Shown here in pieces: positions 6,526 through 53,126 of a stretch of DNA of 64,000 nt. Where the stretch lies: contig CM097885.1 of NCBI GenBank assembly GCA_044892525.1, positions 16,308,001-16,372,000 on the forward strand. The letters are read 5' to 3'. The notes under the pieces were generated by a model. It was not told the origin of the DNA, did not search any database, and was given only the letters and a program-made list of their open reading frames with translations. The translations under genes were made by a program, and so were the position numbers. Positions within the stretch are counted from its first letter, which is position 1. Every line of letters begins with the position of its first letter. This DNA is from Schmidtea polychroa. Its lineage: Eukaryota.

Positions 6526-6619
6526 AATGGGTGTATTTTTAAAAAAGTAGATCAGGTTGCTATAGTTGCTTAAATTAATTGTCGACATTTTATTATTAAA
6601 AAATTAAATATCGTTGGTT

Positions 6620-7174: not shown

Positions 7175-7198
7175 TTTATAGTGTTAAAATTCTAATTC

Positions 7199-11128: not shown

Positions 11129-11136
11129 TGATGATA

Positions 11137-11580: not shown

Positions 11581-11683
11581 TTTTAAAAGAATTTTTTGGT
11601 TGGATACGATGTTTTGGTTTTGATATTAATTTTTATTAATTTTTAAATCCTTATAACGTTAAATCCTTAAATCCTTAAGACCA

Positions 11684-17312: not shown

Positions 17313-18560
17313 TTATATTATCTTTTTAAGGAATATGAATTGTTTAGTCAATTCTCTGAAAAAATTATCGCCTATATTTCCTAGGTATATAAAGTTGACC
17401 TGAGTCGTGGTATTTGCTGGGTTCAGAAGGGGTTTATCGATGGAATGTGAAATAGGTTTAGAGCTAAGGCTGGTATTCTTATTAAGGTTTAAAATTTTGG
17501 CATACTTCATAGTTGGGACACGGTTGGGTGTAAGTTTATATGGGTCAATAGTTGGTCTAGTACTAACATTCTCTGGGAGTCGGCCTCTGGCCGACGAGCT
17601 GCGTAGCAGTATCCTTTCGTCCTCCGTCGGAGGACGAAAAATTTTTTTGCTTTCATAATTTCTGGAATAATTTTGGTCTTTTTTAAACAAATCTTTTTTA
17701 ATTAAATTATCGCCATTTTTAAATTTATTTAATTTGGTATTAATGTTATTATTATTTAAATTACTTTTTTCATTTAAAAAATATGATTTTATGTTTACGG
17801 ATTTATTCTTTTTAAGGTTTTTCTTTACTAGGTTTTTATAATTATTATTCTTAATTTTATTTTGATTAAAGATTTTATCTTTATTAAATTTCACGTGTTT
17901 ATTTCTATTATCATTTAAATATTTATGTTTATCAAGTAGTTCGTTTTCATAAAATGGGGATTTATTTCTACTTTTATTTTTATTATTATATATATTTAAA
18001 TAATTAATTCTTTTATTGGTATTATCTTCATTAAATAAAGAGTTATAATTTTCATTTAAATTATCATTACTATATATTACATTTTCATTAATTCTTTTAT
18101 TATTATGAAGTTCATTTAAATATTTATGTTTATCAAGTAGTTCGTTTTCATAAAATGGGGATTTATTTCTACTTTTATTTTTATTATCATATACATTCAA
18201 ATAATTAATTCTTTTATTGGTATTATTTTCATTAAATAAAGAGTTATAATTTTCATTTAAATTATCATTACTATATATTACATTTTCATTGGTTCTTTTA
18301 TTATTATGAAGTTCATTTAAGTAATCATTATTATAATGCATTATATTTTCATTAATTCTATTATTAGTATGAGATTCACTTAAATAATTATTTCTATTAT
18401 ACATTACATTACTATTGAAATTAAAGTTAGAATTGTAAAGATAATTCTGATCATTAGTTACCTTCTTTTCCCATGTGTCCTTTATTCGAAATAAGGTGTT
18501 TATGAATTTATTGTGTTCATTTTGGTTGATAGGCATGCCTCTGCATTGGGGCATAACCAA
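17313..18560 (-). CDS. Asn-rich ORF upstream of the RT ORF (possible ORF1) with a 201-nt tandem duplication
   Basis: 415 open codons in very AT-rich DNA; a 67-aa unit is repeated twice (~17911-18320). Confidence 0.5.
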   Translation of the reverse strand: MVMPQCRGMPINQNEHNKFINTLFRIKDTWEKKVTNDQNYLYNSNFNFNSNVMYNRNNYLSESHTNNRINENIMHYNNDYLNELHNNKRTNENVIYSNDNLNENYNSLFNENNTNKRINYLNVYDNKNKSRNKSPFYENELLDKHKYLNELHNNKRINENVIYSNDNLNENYNSLFNEDNTNKRINYLNIYNNKNKSRNKSPFYENELLDKHKYLNDNRNKHVKFNKDKIFNQNKIKNNNYKNLVKKNLKKNKSVNIKSYFLNEKSNLNNNNINTKLNKFKNGDNLIKKDLFKKDQNYSRNYESKKIFRPPTEDERILLRSSSARGRLPENVSTRPTIDPYKLTPNRVPTMKYAKILNLNKNTSLSSKPISHSIDKPLLNPANTTTQVNFIYLGNIGDNFFRELTKQFIFLKKII

Positions 18561-29278: not shown

Positions 29279-32200
29279 TTAGTCCGATAAAATGACATCA
29301 TCAATGTCAGTAACATCATCATTATTTATAATTCTTGGACTGTCCTGATCATCGAAAGATGGGCTTTCTCCACCAAAAAGCGGTCCAATTTCTTCATGAG
29401 TAAATACCTGGCCAGCATCAGTTTCCTCAATTCTTGGACTGTCCTGATCATCGAAAGATGGGCTTTCTCCACCAAAAAGCGGTCCAATTTCTTCATGAGT
29501 AAATACCTGGCCAGCATCAGTTTCCTCAAATCCTAAATAATGTCCATATGCCAGACTGGTATTAGGCCCCACCCATAGTCTCTTGTCATCGTTGTTCGAC
29601 AAGGCTATCTTCCTATTCTTGAAAGTAAAGAGCTGATGGTTTCTAGTACCTATTCTCGTTTGTGGCACCGTATATACTACGCTGTTGTTGTAGCAGTCTA
29701 AATAAGACTGGTGCCCTATCTCAGTATTACCAAGCTGAACTCCCTTAGCCCTAAGTGTTGCCTTATCTCCTAACAAACTATAACACTTAGGGCGCAAGAA
29801 CACCCATTCCTTATAACCAAGCCCTTTACTTTCATCCTTAAATTTCCCTATCACAGAATCCAAACTCTTTGAATACAAAGGATGAGCAGGATCATAATTA
29901 CTAGTGTCTAGAAGATTATCACGAATCATTGCCGGCAAAAGAGTGTCAAGCTTACAGTGCTTTATCTCTAAGAAAAAGGAGTCGGTGTCGCCGGCAACGA
30001 TATTTATATCACAGTTAAATTCATTTCTATATTTTGCCAATTCTATATACTGTAACTGGTACATCCTCAGTTTAGACAGGTCTAGCACAGATTGGCCAAT
30101 GAAGCTAGGCCTGTCTAAACATATAGAATCCTTATTTAGATGAGCTGCAATCAGATCATCATCAATTCTGATAGATTTTCTGAATGTAGGTTTTGAGGCA
30201 TATACAATCATCTTTTCAGCTGAATTGCATAACCTCAAATTCATCCGTTTTTTAAGGTTTTCCACGGATTTCCCATACAGACTATTATTAAATAATTTAT
30301 ATAAATCTCTATGCAGCTCGCATGTAGAATTTGAGCGCAAATTAGTATTAGTTGATATGTAATCTTTAAAAATAGGTGCATGCTTAAATTTAATTGCCCT
30401 ATGTACATTTTTAATTAAAGCCCCCAATTCAATATACAACTTGAGAAGTCGCCAATGAAGAACATGGTTCTTCTTCGGCCAATGCGTGAGCATCAGCTTC
30501 TCAACTTTTGAATCTGGCGGGCACATTTTTTCCGGAGCAATCGGAAAATCATTCAAAAAATCATGCAAGCAATCAGGGATATCGATATCAACCTCCATAG
30601 TATAGCCATATGGAAGGTTATCAATATCAGCATTCATACATTCATACAAGACAGAATCAAGGTCATCATACACCCATTCAAAATCACCATACGGAAGATT
30701 TTGGCTTAAGGCCCAACCATACAAGTTGTTTATATCTATATACAAGAGTTCTGTGTCTTCAGAACTTACAACATAATGTTTGTTAACAAATGTTAACCCA
30801 CCCCGTATCCCTCCTTCATAGAAATTAAACATTTCCATGTCCTGTAAAAGTTCAATGGGTTCCTTTAATGTCATAAGCGCTGAGCCCCATGACATACCGG
30901 GAATACCATAAAAATTTAGAGGCTCAAGACCATTGTATGCAATGGCCTTTTCACGGAATTGTGTAAAATAATCTGCGAGGAGAAACACATCAAGTTTAAG
31001 GTATGTTAACATATAGTCTAACATATTGTTGCAATTTTGTTGAGTCCAAATAACTTGGGCTAATTCATATTCATCATTAGACACAGAATCCCAAATAGGA
31101 GGCAATTCAAGAGTTGATTCCAGGACCTCAAGAGATGTAGCGAAGTCATAAGGGAAGATACCTTTTGCTCGAACAATTGCGCCATCAAAAACAGAAGAAG
31201 TTAAAGGCAGATCGGAAAGAGTCTTAACAGCTTTTGCAAGTGATGAATTAACAAACTGCATGCTGTCAATAAAACGAACAGGCAGTTTGTTAATGTACGC
31301 GATGAGAGAGATAAATTTTTCCGTAGTGTTTGGAATAATATTCAATTCCCAAGAAGGAAAATTATTCAAACCATACTTCAAAATATGATGGAGGTCATAC
31401 CCCCTCAAATTGTGAAATACAACAGGTAACTGTCTCTGAATTCTGCGAGACACATTACATTTCCTACAGGCAGCACCAAGATACTTACCTGTGAAGGGAC
31501 AATGGTACCTAACTCTATCTCTAATAAATTTTTTACAAAGATAGCAGGTCCTGGAATTATAAAAGGCACGATCTTCAGCGAAAGACAAGGTTTGCATAGG
31601 CTTATTACCGTTAATTTCGTAATATGGTAGGACAATTGTGACAGCAATTTCCTCCACCTTATGCAAGAAAGACAACACGCAATCCTCACCAACAAACTCA
31701 TAATAAAATCTAGTTTTGTTATAATTGTTAATTAGTAACATGCCTGCTGTTATTGGCATGTGTTTTTGATGGTGGGTGATATCCTCAGGTAAAATCGACT
31801 CAAAATCGGCATATATCACGAATGGCGGGGTTACTGTTTTTGCATAGTTTGAGAATATTAAATTTTTCTCTTTCGGTAATGTATATAAAGTAGAACCTAT
31901 TTGATTCTTACGGCATAGGTCTACATGAATATCATAAGCGCTCCTATGTCTGAAGCCATTAAGGCAATGTGGGCACTATTTGACGCGAATCCAAAGGTGA
32001 CAGGAGCTATTTGGGTGTGAATTCATAAGTTTTTGAAGATCAAAAACTGCGGTGTAATGAAAATTATCACCGTCTTCTAATAATAATAAATATATGGGTT
32101 TACCACCTATAACCTTAGATCGGTGAATAATATCTAACTGGGGATGATGAGGGATATAATCTTCATTGTTGATATAATCTTCATTGTTGATAGGTTTGGC

Positions 32201-33480
32201 TGGTTTATTTCTATATATTAAAACGTTAATGGCTAAGTTCAGTTCACGGTTTTTGCGTTCGAATTTAGGTATGTTACTTAATCTCATCGGGCAATCACTA
32301 ATGGGGTCAAAATTAATTTCATCCAAATAATTTTGGTAAGCACTAACTCGATGCATATTTCTGCGTATAACATCACGCTTTAAGAGGGCTAGAACACTAT
32401 ATATAAAACACATATCATCATCTGTGTTCTGGATATTGACTATTGCGTGTTTAGACTTTAACGCTGTCGGGGTGGGAATATAACTATGTCCAGCTAACCT
32501 ATTCATAATCTTATACTTATTTATTATGAAGTCAATTTCTTTTATTTTAACAACCCGCCATCCGCTACCTAAATATGTGAATTTTTCTATCTTATTATTT
32601 AATTTAGTGACGCCATTGATTAAAAAATTTTCTGAAAAAACTTCGGCGTTATTGGAGAAAAAATTATCTCGGATTTCGCCATCTTTCTCAAATTGTATGA
32701 GAACCGTGAACTGAATTTTAACGGGCCCCATACCGTTCATTTCTGATACTAGTTTTTGAATAATTTTTGGTGTTATTGCTATCTGTACTAAGGCGTCTTT
32801 CTCCACGTCAAACCTTAGATTTTTTCTAGCCCCCTTAAAATCTATTTCTATTTCTGGCTCGTCGTCTATATCGACTGAACCGCCTATTTGATTATTTAGT
32901 ATATTATTTAGGATATTATTTAGGTTATTATCTATTTCATCACCACCATAATTAACTTTAACAATTTTAGATGGAACACAAGACCCCGGACTAACAGCAG
33001 GCCGTTTTTTATTTTTAATTAGATTATTATTCACATTATTATTTACATTATTATTTACATTTTGTGCTGTGCTATTCACATTTTTATATACAGTTTTATT
33101 TACAGTTTTGATATGTTCTGTATTATTTACATTTTGTGCTGTGCTATTCACATTTTTATTTTTATAAACAGTTTTATTTACAGTTTTGATATGTTTTGTA
33201 TTATTTACATTTTGTGCGTGCTATTCACATTTTTATTTTTATAAACAGTTTTATTTACAGTTTTGATATGTTCAGAATTATTTAACTTATTAAAAAGTTT
33301 CTTTTTATTTAAAGTAAACTGATTTAGATGTTTACTATGTATATTATAAAAATCCTTATATTTTATAGGTTGGGAAGTCTGGCATAGTGGACATAAATAA
33401 TATTTGAGTCCATAGAATTTATGCCCATAGTATTTTTTCATGTTTTTGTGACATACTTTAGTATGCCCAGTCGAAGACAT
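29279..33480 (-). pseudogene. pPolB of element B with one frameshift (~33218) and one in-frame TAG (31976-31978)
   Basis: Three ORF-track pieces join. A 1-nt deletion in one copy of an N-terminal repeat (AGCACGCAC vs AGCACAGCAC) links the Zn-finger ORF; IRVK*CPHCL reads on into YADFE, YIDINNLYG, KLFNNSLYGK and GDTDS. Confidence 0.93.
29330..29529. repeat. Perfect 99-nt tandem duplication in the pPolB tail
   Basis: EETDAGQVFTHEEIGPLFGGESPSFDDQDSPRI twice, identical at the nucleotide level. Confidence 0.95.
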
Positions 33481-33692
33481 GCAATACCGAGGATATAATC
33501 GGCCTATTAATAAATTTATTTAATAATTATCTAAATATTGTTGTAATATAGAATGTTTAATATCTTTATTAACAATTGTTAGTAGTTATTCAGTTTTTTA
33601 TTAGACAATAATTATAAAACTGAATAACTATTAACAATTATTAATAAAGGAAATATTATTAGCAGTTAGATCAAAGACATGGAAATTTAAAG

Positions 33693-33774
<82 letters not shown>

Positions 33775-33778
33775 TATT

Positions 33779-33835
<57 letters not shown>

Positions 33836-33888
33836 AGAGAGATGTAGTTGCATGCTGACTGCAAACTACTGGTAGAAATTATGGGTCA

Positions 33889-34038
<150 letters not shown>

Positions 34039-34392
34039 TCTAAACTTAAATTATAACTTTCTCAAGAATAGTTCAAAATTTTCTTCTTTTTAAATTTTCA
34101 TCATCATTTCATATAAATTTTCATCATCTGTTCATATAAATTTTCTTCATATAATTTTTCAAATAAAATTGTTCAGGATTTTTCAAATAAATTTTCATCA
34201 TCTGTTCATATAAATTTTCTTCATCTGTTCATATAAATTATCTTCATATAAATTTTCTTCATATAAATTTAAATCGTCAATTACAAATTTACAGCATTTT
34301 TTAAAATAATTTAAAGAAAGTTATAATTTAAGTTTATAAATAATTTATAAATAATTATGATTAATAAAAAATATTATTCATGAAAAAAAAAA

Positions 34393-35525: not shown

Positions 35526-35940
35526 TTAAACATGAAACTTTTTGTACAACAACCACGCCAAACAGTGTTGACCACATGTTTGGGTCAAGGGATTTTGAAA
35601 CATAGTTTTATTATACACAATAGGTTTCCCCATTGTTTGTAGTTTTGATATCAACAAAGCCGGGTAATAAAAACCCATAGGATCGAACACGAATATATTA
35701 CCAGGTTTCATATATATAGCTATCCAATGTTCTCCACCAAGATGAGACGATTGAGTATTGACGATTATTGCTTGATTATTGCTCAAATATGGAATTTTAT
35801 CAAGAGGAAAAACTCCAACAAATTCATTTCCCAATATCTGTTTTCCAATTCTCAGTACCTGAACAGAACTACTTAAATAAATCCAGAGTATAAAAAAAAA
35901 CAACTTACTCCATGACAACTTTTTGTGTTTCAATATACAT
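35526..35940 (-). CDS. Adenain-like protease of element B, two exons
   Basis: GEHWIA, FVFDPMG, QNPLTQTCGQHC. ATG at 35940 abuts the capsid stop; the GTAAGT...TAG intron 35869-35908 joins MD|SVQVLR. Confidence 0.88.
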
Positions 35941-37154
35941 TTATACCAACACAGCTCTATTTGCAGTAATTTGAACTTCATTTTCAAATACTCCATATAT
36001 TATAACATGTACTGGTTCAGTAATAGCTTTTGCAAACTTTATATCCAGTCGTAAATTTCCATTTTGAGGTAATTGACTTTGATTTAAATCAAAATCAGGG
36101 GCTAAAACAAATGTAAAAAATGGGTATTTGCTTTTAAAATCCTCTAGAGTTATTCCGCAATTCAAATTTTTATCTAAATAACCCAGATTTCTAACAATAC
36201 TCTGCATATATGTCGCACAGTCATTCTCGAAATCTTGAATATATGTTTCTCTATAATCAGTATTTTTCGACAAAGTCAATGATGTAACACCAAAGTTTTT
36301 GAAAATTGAGCTGGACGCAGTATATGATCCATTATATTGTGCTTCACTTTGAAATGTTATCAGAATAAAATTAGGCATTCTTCTGTCACCAAATATTTGT
36401 TCTTTATAGAATGATGAAGCACCTTTAGCAATAGCAAATTGTACAATTTCCTTTGTTTTTAATGGATAAATTGCATGTTTTGAATTAAGACCCAATTGAT
36501 GACCTGCTAATACTGAGGGGTCTACTCGAACTCTTCTGACCAATAATTTTGCATCAACTAATTGACATATTGGTGTAGTAGTTGCACTAGTAAGAGATAA
36601 TGCAGAATCAGACCTTTTCAGTCTAATATGTACATTAACTCCCGGTAGTAAATATTTCGGTTGATCCATAAAATCAAGTTGTAATGATGAGCACATGGTG
36701 AAAACCTTTGAGCCTTTTACTACTTTTTTCTTTCATCATCACTGCCATAGCCCATAGGAGTAAGACATGTATTTTTAGTATCGGAATTGTAATTTAAAAT
36801 AGTTTCTATTAATGCCTTGTGAATGAATGTATTATTTCCACCCTCAATCTTGATATTATTAAATCCCAACACTGCATCTTTAAAAAGAGTATGAAACAGG
36901 AAATTGTTCGGTATTACATCTGCATTGGCATCCAAAACTTTTCTATCTTTATCTACAACCTTAATCTGAACAGTCAATAAAGTATCGTTCAAATCTAAAT
37001 ATTCGGTTTGTGAACCATTAATATAAAACTCGATATCATTTCTACTATCGGTAATTGAATTCATAGGAAAAACTTCGTCAAATGCCCCAAATTCTATTAC
37101 AGCCTGGGGCGACGGTCTATCAAATATACATAATTCAGATTTACCACAAATCAT
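35941..37154 (-). pseudogene. Major capsid protein (double jelly roll) with a 1-nt frameshift at run 36724-36729
   Basis: CGKSELCIFDRP, IEFYI...YLDLNDTLL, LQLDFMDQPKYLLPGV, GNLRLDIKFAKA. One extra A gives RKKVVKGSKVFTMC and joins the two ORFs. Confidence 0.9.
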
Positions 37155-37513
37155 TTTGCAAATATAGTTCCATGTCCTTTCATTCTTTTGTTTATACGTG
37201 ATATTCCATGTCTTTTACGTTTTGGAGCTGGAGCTGGAGCTGGAGGTTTTTGAAACATACCTGCAACCCCTGGTAAAACTTTCCCTAATTCAGCTAAAGT
37301 ATTTGTTTTTAGAGATGGTAATATTTTCTGTTCATTCATAATAACATCTTTTGCAGTCTTCATACCAAAACTACCAATACGTTTAAGAATAGGCAGGGCA
37401 AATCTACCAATTGTTCTCAACCATCCTGATCCGTACTGTTTACCAATAAATTATGGTAATTCACCGCCAGATTGGCTACCACTATACATACTAATAATAT
37501 CAGAATTAGCCAT
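37151..37513 (-). pseudogene. Conserved Polinton core protein with amphipathic helix; in-frame TAA at 37451-37453
   Basis: MANSDIISMYSGSQSGGELP*FIGKQYGSGWLRTIGRFALPILK; QxGG and QxGxG motifs; basic tail. Confidence 0.75.
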
Positions 37514-38549
37514 TTATTTTACGAAAATGTAATGTCAAATGAGTTTTTGAATCTTTTGGAAAGTTTATAAGTTTTCCACTATCATCACGAATATTTATTT
37601 CTATATTGTTTATACATGAACTTGCTATTGGTAAATACATGGGATTATCGATATTTATATTGACAACTTCATCATGTTCATATTTTCCAATCCATACCGA
37701 TTTCAAAAGAGGAACACTGGAATCACCAACAATTATGGGTTCGATAATGTTAGTATATATGAACATTTGTTGATGATGTTCTAGTATTCTTGGTTTGCGT
37801 ATACCAGTCGATTTTTCTCGATATTTTTGCCTATCTAATCCAAGTGAATTTGCCAAATTTTTATCAAATGTAACTTCGCAAATATCCTCATTCAAACTGA
37901 AGGTAAACATCAAATCTTTCACAATTTCCAAATTTTTAAATATGTGTGAACAATTGAACTTTAAATATTTAAGTAAATCATCAAGTTTATCAAAATATAA
38001 TTCATCAGCAAAGGTAAATGATTCTTCAACTTCATCATTATACGACACAGATATTTTGATTTCTTCTTTCATTACACTGTTTGCTTCAAATAGATTAAAA
38101 CGTAATAAATACTCGGTCTCCGTAACAATATTTTTCAACTTATTGCAACCCATTCGTTTGGCATCTTCAATAGTTTCGAATGTTATTGTAAACGGTTTAA
38201 AATCACAACTGATATTTAATCCATCCTTGTAAAACATATAGCAATGCGAATCTAATATTTGATTCGGAATATGATATGTTTTATCATAATTACTAATAAC
38301 AAAGATACCGCTACATGTTTTCACAATATTCCTTCTGAAATCAATCTTACAATGACTATAAAATGGGAATGTGTTGTACACAAATGTAAAATCTTGCAGT
38401 GCAACTTCCCAGTCACCATTTAAAGAAATCGGATTCTGGAGATTGACCATAAATTTACTGGCTTGATTGTCTGGATGAATTAATGGGCAAGTATTGCTCG
38501 GTAAAATAGTATAAAAATTCACTTTACTAGGTCTTTTGCTGATATCCAT
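37506..38549 (-). CDS. Minor capsid protein (penton) of element B
   Basis: FYTILPSN...NQASKFMVNL...GDWEVAL; MFIYTNIIEPIIVGD..VPLL; IEINIRDDSGKLINF...LTLHFR. Confidence 0.9.
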   Translation of the reverse strand: MDISKRPSKVNFYTILPSNTCPLIHPDNQASKFMVNLQNPISLNGDWEVALQDFTFVYNTFPFYSHCKIDFRRNIVKTCSGIFVISNYDKTYHIPNQILDSHCYMFYKDGLNISCDFKPFTITFETIEDAKRMGCNKLKNIVTETEYLLRFNLFEANSVMKEEIKISVSYNDEVEESFTFADELYFDKLDDLLKYLKFNCSHIFKNLEIVKDLMFTFSLNEDICEVTFDKNLANSLGLDRQKYREKSTGIRKPRILEHHQQMFIYTNIIEPIIVGDSSVPLLKSVWIGKYEHDEVVNINIDNPMYLPIASSCINNIEINIRDDSGKLINFPKDSKTHLTLHFRKING

Positions 38550-39151
38550 GACGGGTTTTGATAACCATGCCATTTGACATAGTATTGTTTATCCTTACCG
38601 ACCTTTTTCGTTTTCAATATCTTTTGAATTCTAAATACTTTTGGGGGAGGAATGACTTGTAATTCCTGCTCATAAAATTTCCCTTGTACAATATTATTAT
38701 CATTATCTTTGATGACATACATTACAGGATTCTGTTTAGTATTTATTTTTGAAATTACAAAGACTTCATCACTCCAATTTGTATCAAAATTTTTAATAAA
38801 TGGTGATGCACTAATTTTACTAATTCTAACATGGTCACCGACTTTATATTTAGGTTTTGCAATTTTTACAGATTTCTTAGAAGTCAATGATGTTTTTGAT
38901 GTAATATCAACAGGTCTCAATCCATTCAGTCCTCGATGTGACGAATGATTATAACTTGTTATTATTTTCGGTAAAGCATTTACCCATTTTTTATTACCTT
39001 GATGCACGAACAATTTCTTTAATCTATCTCTCAATGTTCGATTAAATCTTTCAACATGGGCAGCTTTGTATTGAGAATGTACCGAGTAGTGATTTATTTT
39101 CAGTTTATCGAGGATTTGCTTAACTTTGCTATTGTAGAATTCTTTACTTAA

Positions 39152-39246
<95 letters not shown>

Positions 39247-39634
39247 CTAAATCTGTTTGCAAGTTATTAGGATGTCCATCTTTAAATAAAATATTAATTG
39301 CCTTGGACATTTCTTCTGCAGATTTTGCCTTGACTGGTATTGCTCGTGCAAACCTGCTGTATACATTAATACATGTTAAAATATATTTATTTCCATTGTT
39401 AATTTTCGAATAAGGTATCATCTCCATCAAATCCATTTGCCATAAATCGTCAATACCAAATGTTTTATATGCTCTTGTTGGAAATCTTTTCCGCATTGGT
39501 TTGTTCAAACTGTACGCAAGCTGATCTGATAACCACTTCTGGGTTTCTTTTTTCGAATTCTGAACTCTTTTCTTTAATTTTGCCACTCCACCGAAACCGG
39601 TTTCGTCTTCTGGGTTCGTCCAAATCTTCTCCAT
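38519..39634 (-). CDS. rve integrase with C-terminal chromodomain, interrupted by an (ATT)n intron-like insert
   Basis: WQMDL, LQTDLG[insert]KEF, HVERFNRTLR; chromodomain FRIQKILKTK...YYVKWHGY...SWI; likely start MEKIW at 39634. Confidence 0.92.
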
Positions 39635-39692
39635 TACAACAAGAAGATTTAAAATTAAATTTAATGTCGGGCAATGAAGGATTAGCACCCAT
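39465..39692 (-). CDS. Small overprinted ORF with an N-myristoylation motif
   Basis: MGANPS fits MGxxxS; also contains SSCC. The ATG lies 3 nt after the upstream stop and the ORF overlaps the integrase 5' end in another frame. Confidence 0.45.
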   Translation of the reverse strand: MGANPSLPDIKFNFKSSCCNGEDLDEPRRRNRFRWSGKIKEKSSEFEKRNPEVVIRSACVQFEQTNAEKISNKSI

Positions 39693-39695
39693 TGT

Positions 39696-40223
39696 TTATG
39701 ACTGTGTAACTCCACCTAATAATGATAATGCCAGAGGTATCAAGGCACCAATAAATCCACCTTGTTGTTTATATATAATTTTCCTCATTTGCTTACGATT
39801 TTTATTATTTACTAAGGATAACAATGGTTTCCTATGTTTGCTCAATAAATGCTTTTTTCATTTACTGATTTTAATTTTGCCTTTGACTACTTTAAGTATA
39901 ATATTGAGTAAATCATCGACAACGAAATTTGGGAATGATTGCAATATATTCATTCTTTTCATACTCGGGGCCTTTAACAATGCATTAAAAAATGGAAAAC
40001 TGCGATGATTTTTAACTACTTTTTTACTGGTTTTACTGGTTTTACGGGTTTTACGTTTAGGTTTAGGATTTTTCGAAATAAGATTCATTGCAGAGAAATT
40101 TTCAGTTACAAGTTTTTTAGATGGTGTATAACTAGTTGTTGGTGGAACTTTTGGAACTTTAATACTCTTTCTAATACTTTTTCTTAATTTCCTAATATTT
40201 TTCACCCTTGCTTTTAGAAACAT
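39696..40223 (-). pseudogene. Basic Polinton core protein ending in QQGG plus hydrophobic tail; in-frame TGA at 39858-39860
   Basis: Reading through the stop gives KKHLLSKHRKPLLSLVKNKNRKQMRKIIYKQQGGFIGALIPLALSLLGGVTQS*. Confidence 0.75.
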
Positions 40224-40241
40224 TATTATTCATAGAGGTTT

Positions 40242-40868
40242 TCAACTTTGTTTATAAACCATGGCACCTTTTGGGTTGAAAATATCGGTTTTTACTCGTA
40301 AATCATCGGGACATTGTTGCGTGAAATCAAGAAATATATATCCATGAGGTATTTTTGTAGCATCTTGAAATGCACTGATAAGAAAATTACGATTGTTAGG
40401 GTATGCTTGACGTGCAAGAAAATCAATCACTGTTGCATCTCTAGGATTCTTGAAAATAACTAAATATTGTACATTTAAATTACGTGTTCGATGTGCCCCG
40501 CCTTGATGAAATAGATTTTGTGTTATGAAAATAACTGTTACACCGACATGTCTGCTGATCTTTGTAAATAAATTATTAAAATCTTTTTCTTTATTAGCTT
40601 CTTGATACAGATCATCGATAATAATGACATCACCTTTCTTTAATCGGCTGGACCAGTTTTTATCGAATCCCTTTACTATTTTCATGTTTTTTAATTTACA
40701 GAAACTTGATTGAGTTAATCCATGTTCTTCATCAGCACCCCTATGCCAATAAATCCTGTTGAATTTTTATTTGAATAAATTTGATTTTAGTAATTTACAA
40801 ACAAATAATGTTTTTCCACTACCACTCGGACCAACGATTTGGTATACTGCATCATTTCTTAATTCCAT
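40242..40868 (-). pseudogene. A32-like packaging ATPase of element B; in-frame TAA at 40767-40769
   Basis: GPSGSGKT, IIIDDL, SRH, ITQN and FKNPRD lie in one frame across the stop. Confidence 0.92.
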
Positions 40869-40971
40869 TTCAAAAATTTTATAAATATATGTGTATTTGT
40901 TTATATTCAATGATTTAATGAACTCGTGCTCAATTTGTATATAAAGACTAATTTTCATAAATGATTTAATA

Positions 40972-41409
40972 ATGTTAGCAAATATAAATTATCGAGGAAA
41001 TTTTGATGTATCGAATATGAGGTTCCCACCAGGGAAACCCCAGCAAATTATCGATAGAAGCGGGAAATATCCGATAATATTTTTCAAGACTGGTAAATGT
41101 AGAATCATGGGATGTAAGAAACCTTTGGATATTAATAAATTACAATATCGAATAAATAATATTATAATCCAATCAATTACCGTTACTATGGATATGGGAC
41201 ATAGTATCAATTTATATAACATGTCGAAAAAATGTGATTGTATGTTTGAACCGGAATTGTTTCCGGCACTAAGACTATTAAAATATAACCCTATATGTGT
41301 CAACGTGTTTGCTAGTGGAAAGGTTGTCATGCTGGGGTTGAGAAATTTGGAGTATAGAGAATTTGTTGACAATGTTCGAAATGAGATAATTTCATTGGTC
41401 GATTTCTAA
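40972..41409 (+). CDS. Divergent TATA-binding protein (TBP)-like protein
   Basis: Two TBP repeats: IIFFKTGKCRIMGCK (cf. LIFSSGKMVCTGAK) and IQSITVTMD...FEPELFPAL...VNVFASGKVVMLG (cf. YEPELFPGL...LIFVSGKVVLTG). Confidence 0.88.
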   Translation: MLANINYRGNFDVSNMRFPPGKPQQIIDRSGKYPIIFFKTGKCRIMGCKKPLDINKLQYRINNIIIQSITVTMDMGHSINLYNMSKKCDCMFEPELFPALRLLKYNPICVNVFASGKVVMLGLRNLEYREFVDNVRNEIISLVDF

Positions 41410-41483
41410 TTGGTTAATTTCTAATTGGTTATTGATTGATTTAAACAAACGGTTTTTTGTTTAGGATTCATTTATTCAACACT

Positions 41484-41850
41484 ATGTACAAATTACCAAG
41501 CTCTGCAAACCTCATGAAAGATATTGACGATTATGGTAAATTTAAAATTTTTATTTTGACATTTTTTAATATTTATTATTTTAGAAAAATATTTAGAAGT
41601 TATGCTCAATAGGATAAAATATTATTATTCTCAAATTGCGGAAATAATCAAGGACAGAGAACCAGAAATCGTTCCAGATTTGATTTTTTATTCAACCCAA
41701 ATTAGAATTATGGAGGTATTCCATCAATTCTTATGGGATATTAAGATCGACAGAACCATGAAGCAAATGGAGCCGGAGTACCAGTGCATCATCGGATGTT
41801 CATGTTGTGCCGATCGATATCGGCGATATGTCGAATGGGAGTTAGTATAA
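41484..41850 (+). CDS. Two-exon hypothetical protein with a CxxxCxCC motif
   Basis: ATG 41484; GT-AG intron 41536-41584 splices in frame to ORF 41602-41850. Confidence 0.7.
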
Positions 41851-42169
41851 ACTCTGAGAAGGTTTCACTACTCCCGGATTGTTGATTTGGGTTATGAATA
41901 AATGTATTTCGTGTTTGAATTGTGTTTTTTTTTATATTTAAAATAATAGTAATAATATAAATAGTAATAATAATAATAATAGTAATAATAATAATAATAG
42001 TAATAATAATAATAATAGTAATAATAATAATAATAGTAATAATAATAGAAATAGTAATAATAATAATAGTAATAATAATAGTAATAATAATAGAAATAGT
42101 AATAATAATAATAGTAATAATAATAAAACATTAATAATAAAACATTAATAGAACATAAATGCAGCATTA

Positions 42170-42246
42170 ATGCAAATGACATGCAAATTTAAACAAAGAC
42201 ATGCTATAATCTGATTGGTTGATAGGCATGAGTCAAAGGTATAAAA
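42170..42246 (+). promoter_or_regulatory. Pol II-type promoter: two octamers, CCAAT box, AP-1 site, TATA box
   Basis: ATGCAAAT at 42170 and 42181, ATTGG at 42214, TGAGTCA at 42229, TATAAAA at 42240, ATG at 42281. Confidence 0.65.
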
Positions 42247-42280
42247 ACCCTGTAACATTTAAATTTATTCATTATTCACT

Positions 42281-42691
42281 ATGACCAAGAAAATTTCATG
42301 CACCGAAAAACCTAAAGAAATGGTACAACCAGTTCAAATGTTCCACAACTACAAAATGTATTTTTTGAAAGAAGAAATCAATATGAAATTAGTTGCACCA
42401 GTCAAGCTGATTCCAACTAAATTTGAATTCTTATCCGGCACGCTTTCAATGATTGATGTCAAAACTATTGATGATGTTTTTAAACGGATAGATTCGAATC
42501 TATCGTGTAATCAACATGCGTGGTTCAACAATAGATATGCAAGATTTTATGATGCTTTTGATGAAATCAGTTTCAAAGAAAATGGAAATTGGTATATAAC
42601 AATTGCAATCCAGGGATATAAAGTTGATAATAATGATGTATATTCTCCTATTTGGAAAATTATGTCTGCTAGACTTTCACAAATATTTTAA
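42281..42691 (+). CDS. Hypothetical beta-rich protein, possibly OB-fold/SSB-like
   Basis: Intact 136-aa ORF with a good promoter and a downstream AATAAA; the fold guess is weak. Confidence 0.6.
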   Translation: MTKKISCTEKPKEMVQPVQMFHNYKMYFLKEEINMKLVAPVKLIPTKFEFLSGTLSMIDVKTIDDVFKRIDSNLSCNQHAWFNNRYARFYDAFDEISFKENGNWYITIAIQGYKVDNNDVYSPIWKIMSARLSQIF

Positions 42692-42817: not shown

Positions 42818-43179
42818 ATGAAAATGACTGCAGAAAAAGGTTAACATGATTAATTAATTACCGAATTATTTATTATTTAGAATTTTTAATCAACTTTTTG
42901 TTGGAAAAGTTAGCAGAAATATCTGGTGTGAAAATTGAGGACATATTATCTATTACAAATGCCTTAAATATCGGCTGGATAGTTGAGAGTCAAGATACAG
43001 GATTTGATGATGAGGAAGAAACTCAAGAAACCGATACTCAAGAAATTGATGAGGAAATCTATGAACCTATAGAGGAACCTATAGAGGAACCTAAAGATAA
43101 TATTACGAATGATTGTATTGATCATGTCGTTGAAAATATAATGAAATGTGGAGATGACGACTGCGAATGTGTTAATTAA
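42818..43179 (+). CDS. Two-exon acidic protein with a Cys-rich tail
   Basis: ATG 42818; GT-AG intron 42840-42880 in frame with ORF 42898-43179; AATAAA at the stop. Confidence 0.65.
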
Positions 43180-43869: not shown

Positions 43870-44370
43870 ATGAAAACTATATTCATATTGCTAATTATTA
43901 TAACGAGTGTGTGCTCACACAATACAACAATAACAGTGGAGTCCTTTAATAAATCAATATGTGTTTGTCCGAATACAGCCAAGTTGATGAATATTTTATA
44001 TATTCTCGACAAACCAAAATGGTCAAAGCATCCAGGAAAAAGAATATCTCAAAGATTGGAGAATTTAGAAAACAGTTATGAACTATCATTTGAATATATA
44101 CAAAATATAAAAATTAAATTGATTGATCATATTGAGGTTTTCAATAACTCTATTGTTGAAAATAAAAAGAATATGAAAATTATTGATAAGAAGCATGATT
44201 ATTTATTAAAAAAGATTGAATTATTATTAAGAGAAATTCAAACAATCAAAGGATCAATTGAATATCTGAAAATCAATTCAACGTTATCAATTTCAAACAA
44301 TATTGCTGCGAATAGTAGTACATCAATATTTAGTTTACCTTTGTTAATTTTACATTATTTTATTGTTTAA
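43870..44370 (+). CDS. Putative secreted or GPI-anchored coiled-coil glycoprotein
   Basis: Signal-like MKTIFILLIIITSVCS, several NxS/T sites, heptad region, Ser/Asn-rich spacer and a terminal hydrophobic tail. Confidence 0.6.
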   Translation: MKTIFILLIIITSVCSHNTTITVESFNKSICVCPNTAKLMNILYILDKPKWSKHPGKRISQRLENLENSYELSFEYIQNIKIKLIDHIEVFNNSIVENKKNMKIIDKKHDYLLKKIELLLREIQTIKGSIEYLKINSTLSISNNIAANSSTSIFSLPLLILHYFIV

Positions 44371-44507
44371 ATAAATGTATGTTTTGTTGATTTGTGAGTT
44401 GTTGAGCGTGACCAGTACCCTTGTGAGCATTACCCATAGAGGGAGAAAATATTTTGTCGGATAAACTCGGGGCAGTACCCTTGCGTACAATACCCAACAA
44501 TAATAAT

Positions 44508-44651
<144 letters not shown>

Positions 44652-44744
44652 TTAAGTCTTACCTGATTGGGTGAATGATAAATCACCCGCAAATTTCTTC
44701 ATAAAATTTGCTATAAATTTGCTATAAATTAGTGTCTGACTAAA

Positions 44745-45334
44745 AAATTAATAACTTTTATACCACTAGTGATAAAAATTATTTCTATGGCTCAAAAGAT
44801 TTGTCTTCGTCTGGTCTTCAAAATGAACTATAAATTGTTAAAATATTTTGAGATTTAGACTAAGTTTTTGGCTCACGAAAAGTAGGACTCCGCTAGCACA
44901 GTTAATAATATTTTTGAAAAATAATAATAATTTACCTTAAAATGACTAAAATGACTCTGACCAAAACCTTAATAACTTTTTTATTATTAGTGATAAAAAT
45001 TATTTCTATGGCTCAAAGGATAGATCTCCGTCTGGTCTTCAAAATGAACTATGAAATTTTAAAAGATTTTAAGTTTCAGACTAAGTTTTGGGGTCACGAA
45101 AAGTAGGACTCCGCTAGCACAGTTAATAATATTTTTGAAAAATAATAATAATTTTTGATGAGTCATCGGATGAGTCATTGTCTTTGTTCTAGACGAGTGA
45201 TGAGTCATCGGATGACTCATTGTCTTTGTTCTAAAGTTGACCTTGAAAAAAAAATTTTTAAAAATTTTTTCCGGCCGGGGGGGGGGGTACTGTGCTAGCG
45301 GAGTCCTGTTTTAGCGGTGCCCAAACCACCTACT
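44745..45334. repeat. Right terminal region of Polinton B: 221-nt-period duplication, AP-1 repeats and tip
   Basis: Two copies containing AGTAGGACTCCGCTAGCACAGT (44881, 45102), an inverted copy at 45289-45307, and terminal CCTACT. Confidence 0.85.
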
Positions 45335-47962
45335 AATTTGCACTCACTACAAGCAATTTGAACAAACATACACTTCAGCAGTCCCAACACAGATTTTAAA
45401 TCTAACTCTGCTGTGCTTTACAAACTCTTTTACTAGAATTAACCATAGCAACATAAAAGTGGCCATCAGCTAAAGGTGAGCCTCTCACAAGGACTGATAA
45501 TGTCCGACGTGCCTCAAGATTTACATAAGTATCATTGAAGATGTAGTGTCTTATTTAATCTGTCCCTATCATCATTATGTTTACTTCACCTATCTATTTG
45601 TCGTTACTTGATACCTCAAAATTCTGAATTTGGATTTTTACTTAAATAAATGAAGATTTGAAGTATGATAGGTGATACAAAGTGGGAAAACAATCTTGTG
45701 AAAGGGAGCAGAGTAAATCCGACACATGCCTTCTATAAGCAGTTCGTGGATCCAAGTAAGTACTGGACAATTATAATATGCAGGTGCATGCTCACTTCTT
45801 GATGGTATTCAAACCCTTGATAGAGTACCAACATTGATTGCTCAATGGGTTTCAAGCGGTATGCCACTTGCTTGTATTTTGAGTTACCCTGGAAACACCT
45901 CGAAAGGTAAAATGTGTGCTAACCGACCAAAATTAAAAATCGAATTGAAATGTGAAAGACAGGGCAGATACAGATGAGATACTATGAAAGATCATGGTGA
46001 GAATGGATTGATCAGGACTATGTTATGAAAGGGTCGAAATGCGAGAAAACTTACAAAAACAGAAAATAATTAATTAATTAATTTGTTGGAACTTAGGAGT
46101 GTGTCAATTAAATGTGCTAGGGTTACTTATGGATTTTGAATCGACTCCTTCCTAAACGGCTTCATGACTATTTTACTTTATGCCATCTGCGTATCCATGG
46201 TAACAACCATGTTGGTCCTGTACACAATGTCTGGAAATCAATGACCAGGTGAGCTCTACTATTAAAACTACTCCTCATTGTATTTTCATTTTCGGGTTCT
46301 GGACTGCTGATCGAAGGTCTTATGTCATGGTTCATTAGCTATTCCTTTCTTAGATTATTGTCATTTTTCATTAACTCCCAAAACAGGTTTACTCTTAACT
46401 ATTCTGTTTAAAAGATTTTGCCACACTCGCGACACGATGATTTCGATTAGTTCCCATGGTTAAACCCTCTCCGTCTCATCGCTGCCTGATTATTCTTGGA
46501 TAAAAAAAATTTATAAAACTATATAAAATTGTAAATAGCAATTAATCATAAAATAATAATAAAAATATAATTTTATATAATAAAATCAATATATAATATT
46601 GACAATTTATCAGTAGTTTATTAATGATATATTTAAAATCGAAAATTAAGAATCTTATATATAAAACTTTTAATATAATTGTTTGTTTACCAACTTTTCT
46701 TTAAATTAATTTTAACTAGATAGCAGCACGTTTTTGTTTCTAAAACATTTACATCATGATCTCATTAATTTACTCGCTATTAACCATCTAAATAAACAAT
46801 TTATATATGATTTTTATTCTGAATAAAATGTAAAAAACATGCATTATTGATTATAACAAAATCAAAATTTAAAGTTTTCATCGATTACTGCAAGTTCTTT
46901 GGTAAAAGTTTTCATCAGTTCTTTCTTGTGCTTTTCTAAGCCAGCTTCAAGCAAGTTACTAATTTCTTTTTCTATTTCAAAAAATGCCGTATTTCCTTTC
47001 ATTAGTGATTCGCTAAAATCATGACTTTCCTGGAGGCTTTGCAGTCGAATGTCAGCACAATCTTGCTTCAAATTAATATCAACTTCATAGAATGACTTGC
47101 TTCCTCAAATCGCTTCTAAATCTCTACATCTTTAGGACTTATTGATTCTAGAACCCTACCTTTATCTCGATGAGTTTCTGATCCATGTAATCATTGACAT
47201 CGCGATTTTGACCAACTTGATCCGTTAAGTTCTGAATGTCTTAACAATGTTACGCATATTCCTCCTGCAATATCAGGCAAATTGTCTCATTTTCATTCAA
47301 ATTCTTGACAGCTATTCGATTCTCGAATTCCAACAATTTTATATCACTTTTATATCAACTTAATAACTTCGGTTTATATCAATTTACCCATACAAAAACT
47401 TCAGAGTTCCTCATTAAATCTTCGCTTTGTTTTATGTGTTCCTGTAATTTCTCTCGTCTGATTTGGGTCTTCTCTTCAATAACAGATATCAAGTTTGATA
47501 TATAAGGTCCCAAATGACCATCGTAATTCAGCAGATATTCGAAATTGAAATTCGTGATTTCTTTAGGAATTTCTTTTTTGACTAAGTCTAGAAACTGGAA
47601 TGAGGGGTCAATTAAATACGAAGTACGACAAAATTTAAGTCTATTTGAAATTATGATGTCAATTTTGTTTTTATATCCTACACAATTAATATTAGCTCCA
47701 ATAGATATTGCCAAACATTTTATATCATATAAATAATGATTATTATAATGATAATACAATAATCATTATAATATTATAATAACAAAAAAAACATGGTCAA
47801 GATGAAAGGATTTCGTTATCAAGTCAGTCCTTATTGTTGTATGAAAAATACATAAAATTATATAAAGAATAGCCAAGATTAACGAGAAAGTGATGCTAAG
47901 GAAGCAGTTAAAAATGTGCTATCGATGGAATAAAATTATTGTGGAATTTTGCCATAAAATAA

Positions 47963-51781: not shown

Positions 51782-52170
51782 ATGGTTTCGTTTGGTGTAT
51801 GTAGTTTATTTACAAATGTTCCATTGAAAAAACGATCGATTTATGTTGTGAATTATGGAATGAAAATATTAATGCGCATAATAAGTGCGATGGAAGTGCA
51901 TTTAAGGAAGCTTTTAGAGTTTGCAACTTCCGAAGTTAATTTTCTTTTTAATAATGAATGGTATGAACAAATTGATGGAGTGGCTATGGGTTCACCCTTA
52001 GCACTAACAATGACGTCAATATTTTTGGCATGTTTAGAAAAGAAAATTGCTTCTTTTCAATATGAAAAACTAATTGTGTATAAAAGGTATGTTGATGATA
52101 TTTTTTTGATATTTAAAAATAAGGAACATGTGAAACCATTTTTGCATTATATGAATAGATTGCATAAGAA
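51782..52170 (+). mobile_element. Penelope-like element RT fragment
   Basis: VSF.V.SLFTNVP, FLFNNEWYEQIDGVAMGSPL, YKRYVDDIF. Confidence 0.88.
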
Positions 52171-53126
52171 AATTTTTATTATCTTTAATTTAGGCAAGCA
52201 GCACCTAAAATAAAATAATAAAAACATTAACCTTAAGTTAATAAAATTTTAAAATAGTTACATAGAAAGGTATTGTGTTTAAATAGCTCATTTTTATGAT
52301 TTAGTCTTGAAGTAAATTCGGATTTTTAATTATTTTATAATTTATCAAAGTTTTATTTTAGTTTCCTAGATTTTTATTTTAGTTCTGAGAGATAAAACTA
52401 CCATCTGTCAATTTTAGTTATAATTTAAAGAATTTTTGTATTTTTTAAAAATGAAACATGTAAAAGTCACTGGCTATTCTGAAATAGTTATAAATTATTT
52501 CGGTCAAATAACTTTAACTGAATATGATTTCAGGTGGGATGTATTTATATTTTCAATTTAATTGTTGGAACCGGGGCGCTAACATTACCGAAAGCCTTTC
52601 AAGATGCAGGTTGGGTGTTGAGTGGAATCGTTTTATGTATCTTATGTTTAATAAGGTAACATTCACCAAACTATTTTTGATAAAGCATTATGTTCACGAA
52701 TTTAAGTTATATTACCGCAACTTATGTAATTGAAGCGATGAGCATTTCAAATGGACTGCAAAAACTGTCCAAATTAAAATACGTAATTTATTTAATTAAT
52801 TAATTTATTATCTTTATTGAAAGAAAATTTTTTATTTATAAATTATATGGAAAATTTTATACAATTTTAATTCTCAAATTGTTTCTTCTTATTATTATTA
52901 ATTAATTGTTAATTAAATTAATTAATTTATTAAAATCTGAAATTTTTTTATTTTATAATTTCATGTTTTGGATTTATAAATAATTATTTTTTGAATTTTA
53001 TTGTATCCAAAATTTGTATTTGTTATTAATTTATCCATTTGATTGGTCATGGGTGTATAAATCATTTTAAATAAATATATTTATTTTTAATATTATAAAT
53101 TTTTTCAATTTTCAATTGACATTTTA

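Follow-up and report, generated by a model that had tools for sequence, protein, structure and literature searches.

A 64,000-nucleotide stretch of the Schmidtea polychroa genome (assembly GCA_044892525.1, contig CM097885.1, positions 16,308,001 to 16,372,000 of the forward strand; hereafter the window, numbered from its first letter) carries two Polinton-like gene sets, element A (1-11,600) and element B (~29,050 to ~45,336). Element B contains a gene for a short TATA-binding protein (TBP), which is the subject of this report. The limits of element B were set by homology to other copies, and the short TBP gene therefore lies well inside the element; an inverted-repeat search for the termini was swamped by microsatellites.

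The short TBP gene is an ATG-to-stop open reading frame (ORF) of 145 amino acids that has no internal stop and requires no intron. Its product matches the Pfam TBP family (PF00352) with E = 6.8e-15 and 55.1 bits (cut-off 22.9) in two stretches, the best of which covers residues 64-125. When the ORF was searched against the PDB with phmmer, TBPs or TBP fusions made up 35 of the 36 sequences listed at E <= 10, the top match being the archaeal entry 2z8u (E = 1.1e-9). An AlphaFold2 model built from an alignment of 36 family sequences had a predicted local distance difference test score (pLDDT) of 95.8 and a predicted template modelling score (pTM) of 0.84. Foldseek comparison of this model with the PDB gave 44 matches at E <= 0.001, all of them TBPs, with alignments spanning the whole two-lobe saddle (template modelling scores of 0.67-0.78 over ~164-177 columns), and the first non-TBP match was a rolling-circle Rep protein at E = 0.04. 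These results confirm that the gene encodes a true TBP-fold protein with a helix-less N-lobe and a complete C-lobe.

In the model, the two pseudo-symmetric lobes form one curved beta-sheet saddle. Strands are predicted at residues 2-10, 25-28, 35-38 and 42-48 in the N-lobe and at residues 62-74, 90-92, 99-102, 109-113 and 117-123 in the C-lobe, and the only helices are at residues 81-85 and 129-142. The modelled C-lobe is complete (S1'-H1'-S2'-S3'-S4'-S5'-H2'). The N-lobe comprises four strands and lacks any helix of at least four residues, and alignment to canonical TBPs places the deletions at H1/S2 and H2 of this lobe. The first-pass annotation of this DNA, which was made by reading the sequence, had described an intact and intronless TBP homologue of this length with both repeats, the first of them shortened; that description holds in each respect, the motifs FEPELFPAL and VFASGKVV are both present, and the structure prediction that it proposed as a check yields a confident model whose significant PDB fold matches are all TBPs.

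Relatives of the short TBP are numerous. A word-indexed protein search found 108 of them with 37-98% identity, nearly all 144-170 amino acids long and all with a Pfam TBP match, and an exhaustive search of 50%-identity representatives gave 683 matches at E <= 0.001, 111 of which had E <= 1e-10. None of 10 protein clusters of short TBP relatives bears an informative name. Among the IMG/VR viral contigs there were 39 pattern matches, none of which was confirmed as a short TBP, and 170 relatives were confirmed by tblastn in the JGI metagenome collection. Database matches were pooled with locus ORFs into a conservation set of 260 distinct near-full-length members. The ratio of nonsynonymous to synonymous substitution rates (dN/dS) was determined by the Nei-Gojobori method for 20 independent pairs, and it was 0.05-0.24 in the 15 non-saturated pairs (dN < 0.2) and 0.35-0.90 in the 5 saturated pairs. 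Judged by these ratios, the short TBP family is shown to be under purifying selection.

The relationship of the family to host TBPs was examined in a maximum-likelihood tree of 64 rows, in which 53 short-family rows split from 11 canonical rows, two host ORFs included, on a branch with 100/100 support; the canonical rows are few and come from matches to the short TBP query. The comparison with host TBP that the first-pass annotation called for thus sets the short family apart from canonical and host TBPs alike. Identity of the short TBP to canonical and host TBP-type ORFs is 21-31%, as against 37-63% within the family, and a hidden Markov model (HMM) of the family gives 21-47 bits for the host TBP-type ORFs and more than 200 bits for family members. 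No other TBP-like ORF was found in the window with this HMM. The short TBP gene is intronless, and the host genome also holds intronless TBP-type ORFs, as would be expected if the gene were a recent host TBP retrocopy or a decaying passenger with no function. We find this explanation hardly credible given the separate clade, the low dN/dS of the non-saturated pairs, the 260 distinct relatives and the synteny described below. Three intronless two-lobe TBP-type ORFs of the host were observed (L126:1219-1863 on the minus strand, L128:1462-1959 on the plus strand, and G000:C1:195751380-195751880), with open frames of 215, 166 and 212 amino acids, respectively; two of the three were placed in the tree, and both group with the canonical TBPs.

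The gene also keeps its company. Synteny was scored in 80 loci kept of the 170 metagenome relatives, and these loci are mostly short, so that the counts are minima. With the element B proteins as tblastn queries, the ATPase matched in 25/80 loci, orf136 in 20/80, the integrase in 19/80, the protease and orf251 in 12/80 each, and the protein-primed DNA polymerase B (pPolB) in 8/80. Gene order is kept even in a deep lineage (L075, L081, L085, L094 and L101) in which pPolB is ~35% identical and a PLA2 gene precedes the TBP gene. All five long contigs that were scanned contain a short TBP gene (Pfam TBP, 56.7-65.2 bits). By this comparative evidence, the short TBP is a conserved core gene of one Polinton/adintovirus-like clade.

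In the 781-Mb genome of S. polychroa itself, an initial pass gave 4,165 candidates for the TBP gene, 150 of which were scored. All 150 are 99-100% identical at the protein level (85 at 100%, the window copy among them, and 65 at 99%) and they are spread over all four large contigs. A Pfam-based search of the same genome recovered canonical intron-bearing host TBP genes at 124, 105 and 92 bits as well as over 130 additional short-TBP ORFs whose open frames differ in length. The first-pass annotation had named two findings that would speak against its reading, namely the lack of a TBP fold and a host retrocopy confined to this copy. The fold was found, and the gene is present in every scored copy, in sister elements and, in conserved synteny, in distant relatives.

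Comparison of these copies indicates how the gene moves. A sister subfamily, L130, has a TBP 60% identical, an integrase 69% identical and an ATPase ~86-91% identical to those of element B. The locus L129 (G000:C1:149212728-149218727) has flanks 93-98% identical to element B and a TBP that is only 54% identical. A sliding comparison of L129 with positions 38175-42600 of the window shows a sharp breakpoint within the 5' part of the ATPase gene: the two agree at 97-99% of positions up to ~40,475, at ~85% through that 5' part and at ~55% across the promoter and TBP gene, after which they no longer align. More generally, copies with 96-99% identity on the left have right arms that either match at ~85% or cannot be aligned. 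From the position of the L129 breakpoint it follows that the TBP-bearing right arm is a module exchanged between elements by recombination. Such exchange between elements that are otherwise 97-99% identical could reflect conflict with host silencing or competition among co-resident elements. It was also observed that small acidic ORFs of the right arm (42898-43179 in the window; L129:3311-3679 and L129:4548-4916, minus strand) share a Cys-rich C-terminal motif of the CGDD.C.C type, which is common to subfamilies whose DNA is otherwise unalignable.

The surfaces that the family has kept can be compared with those assigned in cellular TBPs. In the account of Ravarani et al. (2020, PMC7221094), the L5.1 Phe of each lobe is universally conserved and contacts DNA, human E284 and E286 (C.L3.2 and C.L3.4) mediate TFIIB binding, and TFIIA, TAF1, Brf1/2, NC2 and BTAF1/Mot1, the factor that evicts TBP, all dock on the N-lobe. 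Both L5.1 Phe residues are unchanged throughout an alignment of the short family to canonical TBPs, and within the family F38 is found in 259/260 members and F113 in 260/260; F97 is likewise present in 260/260. The TFIIB-contact residues E93 (250/260) and E95 (258/260) align with the EPE of canonical TBPs. The canonical Asn and Val of the C-lobe strand S1' are replaced by S68 in 246/260 members and by T70 in 233/260, at positions that presumably contact DNA at the centre of the TATA box, and this hints at an altered DNA specificity. The motifs NINY and CR(I/L)MGC are specific to the family. Three family cysteines have no counterpart in canonical TBP, C43 (210/260), C48 (200/260) and C109 (232/260), and it is possible that they form a metal site or a disulfide that compensates for the missing helices.

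The upper (convex) face of the N-lobe is made up mostly of the helices that are missing here, and we take these helices to carry the regulatory patch of TBP. Neither an RNA polymerase gene, nor a TFIIB gene (PF00382 or other), nor a VLTF-type gene was found among the scanned ORFs of the window or the 86 ORFs of five long relatives, which for the polymerase agrees with the first-pass annotation. The retention of the glutamates in an element with no TFIIB or RNA polymerase gene points to the use of host TFIIB as the adaptor, and the short TBP looks as though it were built for such use while shedding the host regulatory surface. A complex prediction for the short TBP and the cyclin-repeat exon of host TFIIB gave a score of 0.00 and a mark of 0.34, and it speaks neither for nor against this idea. 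Arrays of intronless full-length TFIIB-like ORFs (301-310 amino acids; zinc ribbon and two cyclin repeats) were observed at G000:C3:38.2-39.1 Mb and C1:23.8-24.2 Mb, in addition to the ordinary TFIIB locus. They were considered as a viral TFIIB and rejected, as the one locus examined (L135:2072-2977, minus strand) has no Polinton genes within 6 kb and a hAT-like ORF nearby.

The genes of element B are arranged on either side of a short spacer (Table 1). Leftward from the spacer, the order is ATPase, orf121, integrase-chromodomain, orf355, small Gly/Pro-rich gene, capsid candidate, adenain-like protease and pPolB; rightward it is short TBP, orf82, orf136, orf93, orf166 and the terminal region. 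The 103-nt gap between the ATPase and TBP genes that the first-pass annotation reported is correct when the ATPase starts at the ATG at 40868 (MELRND...), where the unbroken frame begins in other copies. The ORF finder also gave a longer N-terminal ATPase ORF that starts at 40958 and leaves a gap of 13 nt only.

Table 1. Genes and promoter elements of element B, in window coordinates.
Feature	Position	Strand	Basis or remark
Protein-primed DNA polymerase B (pPolB)	29279..32740	-	Pfam DNA_pol_B_2 (PF03175) 97.2 bits; tblastn matches in L037 and other loci; split here (31976-32740 + 29279-31759)
Adenain-like cysteine protease	35526..35996	-	Pfam Peptidase_C5 27.3 bits (cut-off 21.3)
Candidate double-jelly-roll capsid gene	35941..37154	-	split here into orf144 (36720-37154) and orf251 (35941-36696)
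Small Gly/Pro-rich gene	37151..37513	-	sequence reading; in-frame stop in window copy
TATAAAC box	37190-37196		starts 42 nt upstream of capsid candidate
orf355, virion-module protein	37506..38573	-	no Pfam match; syntenic in 14 loci
TATAAAC boxes (two)	37563-37569 and 37608-37614		upstream of small Gly/Pro-rich gene; one starts 57 nt upstream
Integrase (rve) with C-terminal chromodomain	38519..39634	-	rve 25.1 bits, E = 2.2e-5, below 32.6 cut-off here
orf121, basic protein, function unassigned	39858..40223	-	homologues in 9/80 metagenome loci
ATPase for packaging (A32/FtsK-like)	40242..40868	-	weak Pfam Pox_A32 and P-loop matches, below cut-off here
TATAAAC box	40250-40256		starts 33 nt upstream of orf121, within the end of the ATPase gene
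Divergent promoter region, 103 nt	40869..40971		between ATPase and TBP genes
TATAAAC box	40899-40905	-	in the spacer; starts 37 nt before ATPase ATG
Canonical TATA box, TATATAAAG	40938-40946	+	in the spacer; starts 34 nt before TBP ATG
Short TBP gene	40972..41409	+	Pfam, phmmer, AlphaFold, Foldseek
orf82	41602-41850	+	right arm, co-oriented with TBP gene, function unassigned
orf136, OB-fold, conserved TBP neighbour	42281..42691	+	AlphaFold pLDDT 91.6
orf93	42898-43179	+	right arm, co-oriented with TBP gene, function unassigned
orf166	43870-44370	+	right arm, co-oriented with TBP gene, function unassigned
Right terminal region, terminal-inverted-repeat candidate	44496..45336		inverted at the opposite end of another copy (L113, L114)

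Several of the left-arm genes are damaged in the window copy and are better seen in relatives. The ATPase frame is broken by an in-frame TAA at 40767-40769, and it is an unbroken 208 amino acids in 26/30 sampled copies; its orthologues in relatives score 28.0 and 26.7 bits (cut-off 22.8). An (ATT)n microsatellite has expanded inside the integrase gene at ~39150-39245, and integrase orthologues with 34-58% identity give rve matches of 48-57 bits together with Chromo. The polymerase, split here, is one ORF of 1089 amino acids in the relative L037, and 2.8 kb of microsatellite-rich DNA separates it from the protease in element B. The capsid candidate is a single ORF in relatives (L037:7249-8472, 408 amino acids; L042:7980-9188, 403 amino acids). 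It has no Pfam match at E <= 0.001; as a lead only, an intact orthologue has an Atlas score of 0.98 to a cluster named 'Double jelly roll-like domain-containing protein', 65% of whose members carry PF21738. A similar Atlas lead, at 0.97, connects orf355 to hypothetical proteins of Preplasmiviricota viruses. The small Gly/Pro-rich gene gives the impression of resembling adenovirus protein VI. No left counterpart of the right terminal region was found within the window. The TBP gene itself is whole in this otherwise decayed copy. From its pPolB, rve integrase, A32/FtsK-type ATPase and adenain-like protease, as read in the sequence and its orthologues, element B is Polinton/adintovirus-like.

The right-arm neighbour orf136 is probably a gp2.5-type single-stranded-DNA-binding protein (SSB) and a candidate for the replication SSB of this protein-primed Polinton clade. 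This assignment comes from its model, whose structural Z scores from VIA are 7.5 for CP312R of African swine fever virus, 7.2 for a phage DUF2815 protein, 6.9 for T7 gp2.5, 6.7 for the Enc34 SSB and 5.7 for baculovirus LEF-3; the best Foldseek match has E = 0.019. An SSB would fit an early, replication-type right arm. A role for orf136 as a transcription partner of the TBP was rejected, as the protein has an oligonucleotide/oligosaccharide-binding (OB) fold and most resembles viral ssDNA-binding proteins (moderate Z of 6.7-7.5).

A number of observations concern the surroundings of element B. Trinucleotide microsatellites lie within and between the element genes (39150-39245, 41892-42182, 44454-44692 and 33676-34050), where they yield poly-Ile, poly-Tyr, poly-Asn and poly-Leu pseudo-ORFs and dominate repeat searches of the region. 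Distant relatives of the element carry KilA-N DNA-binding, C2H2 zinc-finger (between ATPase and integrase), E2 ubiquitin-conjugating and RING proteins, and the regulatory-type genes are at L094:7142-7999, L094:11529-11939, L085:6198-6626, L101:4094-4492, L042:225-719 and L085:13315-13893. Element A (1-11600) is a different Polinton, in which the integrase is fused to an N-terminal parvovirus-type PLA2 domain (2-1273); it also has an A32-like ATPase (1285-2076, minus strand), a pPolB of 1309 amino acids (7199-11128, minus strand) and a C2H2 zinc-finger gene. By the family HMM, element A contains no TBP-like ORF, and the gene at the position equivalent to that of the TBP (2092-2670) was ruled out, having no similarity to the short TBP. 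Retroelements at 12678-18554 and 51782-52213 (RVT_1, 100.9 bits at 12678-14834 on the minus strand, with two large unannotated ORFs adjoining, and a second RT fragment) are unrelated to the TBP.

The upstream regions of the element fall into two groups. In the window copy the heptamer TATAAAC stands before the ATPase gene, orf121, the capsid candidate and the small Gly/Pro-rich gene, and the TBP gene has a canonical TATA box. On the right arm, orf136 is preceded by GATTGGTTGA, a CCAAT-type box, and GTATAAAAAC, and GATTGGTTGA with a canonical TATA likewise precedes orf166. The position of the heptamer was analysed in the sequence upstream of 397 ORFs, taken from element B and from 36 metagenome loci 3 kb or longer, where 77 TATAAAC occurrences pile up 32-45 nt before the ATG. 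Where a TATAAA hexamer lies 32-45 nt upstream of an ORF, the next base is C in 54/66 cases, compared with a background of 17% C, and in 89 distinct boxes the base after TATAAAC is A (81%), followed by A or T (61% and 29%). L129 and L130, which represent two other subfamilies in the same genome, have the ATPase box as well.

The distribution of the box among genes was counted in the 80 metagenome loci for those ORFs whose N-terminus aligned and that were preceded by 60 nt or more of sequence, a box being scored 25-55 nt upstream; all of these counts are noisy, since starts were called at the first ATG and some ORFs are spurious. TATAAAC precedes 13/23 ATPase, 8/11 PLA2, 3/10 orf251 and 2/10 orf355 genes, and it precedes none of the TBP (0/67), integrase (0/13), pPolB (0/6) or orf136 (0/9) genes. 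The unlabelled ORFs have it in 60/423 cases, and orf121 and the protease offered no countable cases. A canonical TATAWAW is found upstream of 25/67 TBP genes, and many TBP genes are also preceded by CCAAT boxes and a TCA-type initiator-like motif, as judged by eye and uncounted. In element A, which has no TBP, TATAAAC is upstream of 0/11 genes. These upstream sequences show two promoter classes in the element, with the variant TATA box marking the packaging and virion genes.

These features may belong to one mechanism, to which we give slightly less than even credence: an early-expressed viral TBP would recognise TATAAAC as a late box, recruit host TFIIB and RNA polymerase II (Pol II), and escape the host control that is directed at the N-lobe. 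The TBP gene would be transcribed early from a host-style promoter, which here has a canonical TATA and in relatives often an added CCAAT. The protein would bind DNA through its intact beta-sheet saddle and would recognise TATAAAC(A)(A/T), which starts ~33-45 nt ahead of the ATG in the ATPase gene, the PLA2 gene and several virion genes, so that the short TBP is expected to favour TATAAACAA over TATAAAAG relative to host TBP. The unaltered stirrup of the C-lobe (EPELF) would then bring host TFIIB, and hence host Pol II, to the late promoters. With the loss of both N-lobe helices, the surface for TFIIA, TAF1, NC2 and Mot1/BTAF1 would be gone, and therefore the short TBP should escape host control of TBP. 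We infer the reader of the box, the recruitment of TFIIB and the timing. The first-pass annotation had proposed that the protein redirects host Pol II to viral promoters, and this proposal gains indirect support from the near-invariant TFIIB-contact Glu and DNA-kinking Phe residues and from the variant TATA box on the packaging and virion genes.

Several points weigh against this mechanism. TATAAAC is close to an ordinary TATA box that host TBP might read, and its tie to the viral protein is co-occurrence alone. The heptamer is not enriched across the window (33 found, 25.65 expected, and 9/100 shuffles reach 33), and its signal is therefore positional only. With first-ATG start calls, the box is found on about half of the ATPase genes and on a minority of the orf251 and orf355 genes, and the TBP-less comparison consists of a single element. 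The labels 'early' and 'late' were assigned from gene function and not from measured timing. Of the sequencing runs that contain the element, none is recorded as RNA, and four are only presumed to be RNA. The window copy, with its interrupted ATPase and split capsid candidate and polymerase, is decayed, and this locus may do nothing. Finally, the genomic copies are nearly identical owing to a recent burst, and their likeness is no sign of selection in this genome.

The nearness of TATAAAC to the canonical box, from which it departs at the 3' end only, would also suit a general TBP substitute or decoy (the first-pass annotation, too, had raised a decoy, one for TBP regulators), which would compete with host TBP for TATA and/or for TFIIB/Brf while host TFIID reads TATAAAC. 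Such a protein might sustain viral transcription while host TBP is regulated, or it might damp host transcription. It would be expected to keep the TFIIB-contact and DNA-kinking Phe residues and to lose the regulatory N-lobe surface, as the short TBP has done, and Ravarani et al. (2020, PMC7221094) have proposed evasion of Mot1 as a general feature of viral TBPs. We nevertheless consider this alternative rather unlikely, as the strict C after TATAAA and the confinement of the box to one gene class, with no case among the TBP, integrase and pPolB genes, call for a class-specific reader, and the Ser and Thr in place of Asn and Val hint at an altered DNA specificity.

Two further alternatives give the saddle or the stirrup another purpose. 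As an architectural protein, the short TBP would serve replication or packaging by bending AT-rich DNA at packaging sites, origins or the element's termini, which fits the position of its gene between the packaging ATPase and the SSB-like gene, an adjacency seen in most relatives, as well as the loss of the N-lobe surface for transcription cofactors. This is improbable: near-invariant TFIIB-contact glutamates would have no obvious reason in a purely architectural protein, the box lies at a fixed distance from start codons, and the terminal region at 44496-45336 contains no TATAAAC, the nearest matches being at 42786 and 47372. As a Pol III adaptor, it would pair with host Brf1/Brf2 through the same C-lobe glutamate and drive small viral RNAs, and an Arg of Brf1/2 does contact this Glu, C.L3.2 (Ravarani et al. 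2020, PMC7221094). We regard this role as very improbable given that the box precedes protein-coding genes and that Brf1 also uses a positive patch of the N-lobe (PMC7221094) that is gone in the short TBP.

The mechanism preferred above, in which the short TBP reads the late box and recruits host TFIIB, can be carried further to a two-stage programme run by a single viral factor. The early arm, which includes the TBP, the SSB-like gene and others, would be switched on by host TFIID and CCAAT factors, and the helix-less mini-TBP would then read TATAAAC and plug directly into host TFIIB, invisible to Mot1, NC2, TAF1 and TFIIA. This extension is tentative, and we doubt it more than we believe it. 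If it is true, no virus smaller than these ~16-kb elements would be known to have a basal transcription factor of its own, and the protein would be a natural minimal TBP.

The short TBP shares with cellular TBPs (eukaryotic TBP/TRF and archaeal; PF00352) the two-lobe saddle, the L5.1 Phe of both lobes, the EPELFP stirrup with both TFIIB-contact Glu residues and the complete C-lobe. It differs from them in its length (145 amino acids compared with a core of ~180), in an N-lobe that lacks H1, S2 and H2, in its low identity and separate clade, in the Ser/Thr substitutions of C-lobe S1', and in being encoded by a mobile virus-like element. Large double-stranded DNA (dsDNA) viruses with a TBP mostly encode their own RNA polymerase. 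The TBPs of Nucleocytoviricota and poxviruses described in PMC7221094 resemble the short TBP in that they are virus-encoded proteins of the same fold that keep the DNA-contact Phe and have lost the N-lobe regulatory signature. In the 38 large dsDNA viruses treated there, Glu is present at C.L3.2 in only ~40% of TBPs, and the TBP almost always occurs with a viral TFIIB, in what are described as co-evolving 'orthogonal' systems (PMC7221094). Element B differs from these viruses in its size of ~16 kb, in having no TFIIB or RNA polymerase gene in the ORFs scanned, and in the glutamates, which its family keeps in 96% and 99% of members. A viral structure library (BFVD) gave 26 matches to the short TBP at E <= 0.001, the best of which are TBPs of giant and large viruses, and it returned only TBPs of giant-virus, asco-, irido- and asfar-like origin together with herpesvirus proteins.

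Beta- and gamma-herpesviruses are nuclear DNA viruses whose late box is TATT. Their viral TBPs, several times the size of the short TBP, make direct contact with Pol II and depend on five other viral factors. These viral TBPs act on late promoters (PMC4922670, PMC4893493 and PMC7498053), and by analogy element B may be likened to the systems of Epstein-Barr virus (BcRF1), Kaposi's sarcoma-associated herpesvirus (ORF24) and human cytomegalovirus (UL87), in which a DNA virus with no RNA polymerase of its own combines a TBP-type protein with a variant TATA box that is confined to late genes. Unlike these proteins, to which it has no sequence relationship, the short TBP would have TATAAAC as its box and host TFIIB as its likely bridge. 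Its structural matches to herpesvirus proteins are weak (BcRF1, E = 1.9e-2; U58, 6.7e-3; ORF75, 2.2e-3).

A gene 'similar to TATA binding proteins' was labelled by Starrett et al. (2021, PMC8502044; preprint 10.1101/697771) in the legend to their Fig. 5, in MELD viruses or elements with an adintovirus-like PolB, and it probably belongs to the same family as the short TBP. The label is an entry in that legend, with no analysis there of fold, conservation, promoters or partners, and section 3.4 of the same paper does not discuss it. Apart from this label, a literature search for a TATA-binding protein in Polintons, Mavericks, Preplasmiviricota or virophages found nothing on the topic among the papers listed, as judged by title and abstract. 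The suggestion of the first-pass annotation that the system is undescribed can thus be kept in part: the gene label exists, and the logic of a viral TBP with a variant late TATA is known from herpesviruses, but no analysis was found in this virus group. What is new is the combination of a virus-encoded TBP with a class-specific TATA variant in a virus group for which no earlier analysis was found, the unusually minimal architecture of the protein, and the retention of a docking site for host TFIIB.

The short TBP represents a natural experiment in which both N-lobe helices could be deleted while the DNA-contact and TFIIB-contact residues stay strongly constrained. A strategy based on a host adaptor would sit between the 'orthogonal' systems of giant viruses and the viral pre-initiation complex of herpesviruses. 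Because very many near-identical copies are present in an animal genome, knock-down of the whole family with element transcripts as the readout should be feasible. Almost nothing is known about transcription in Polintons, Mavericks and adintoviruses or about how they switch from integrated silence to virion production, and a conserved viral TBP together with a gene-class-specific TATA variant provides a concrete, testable switch.

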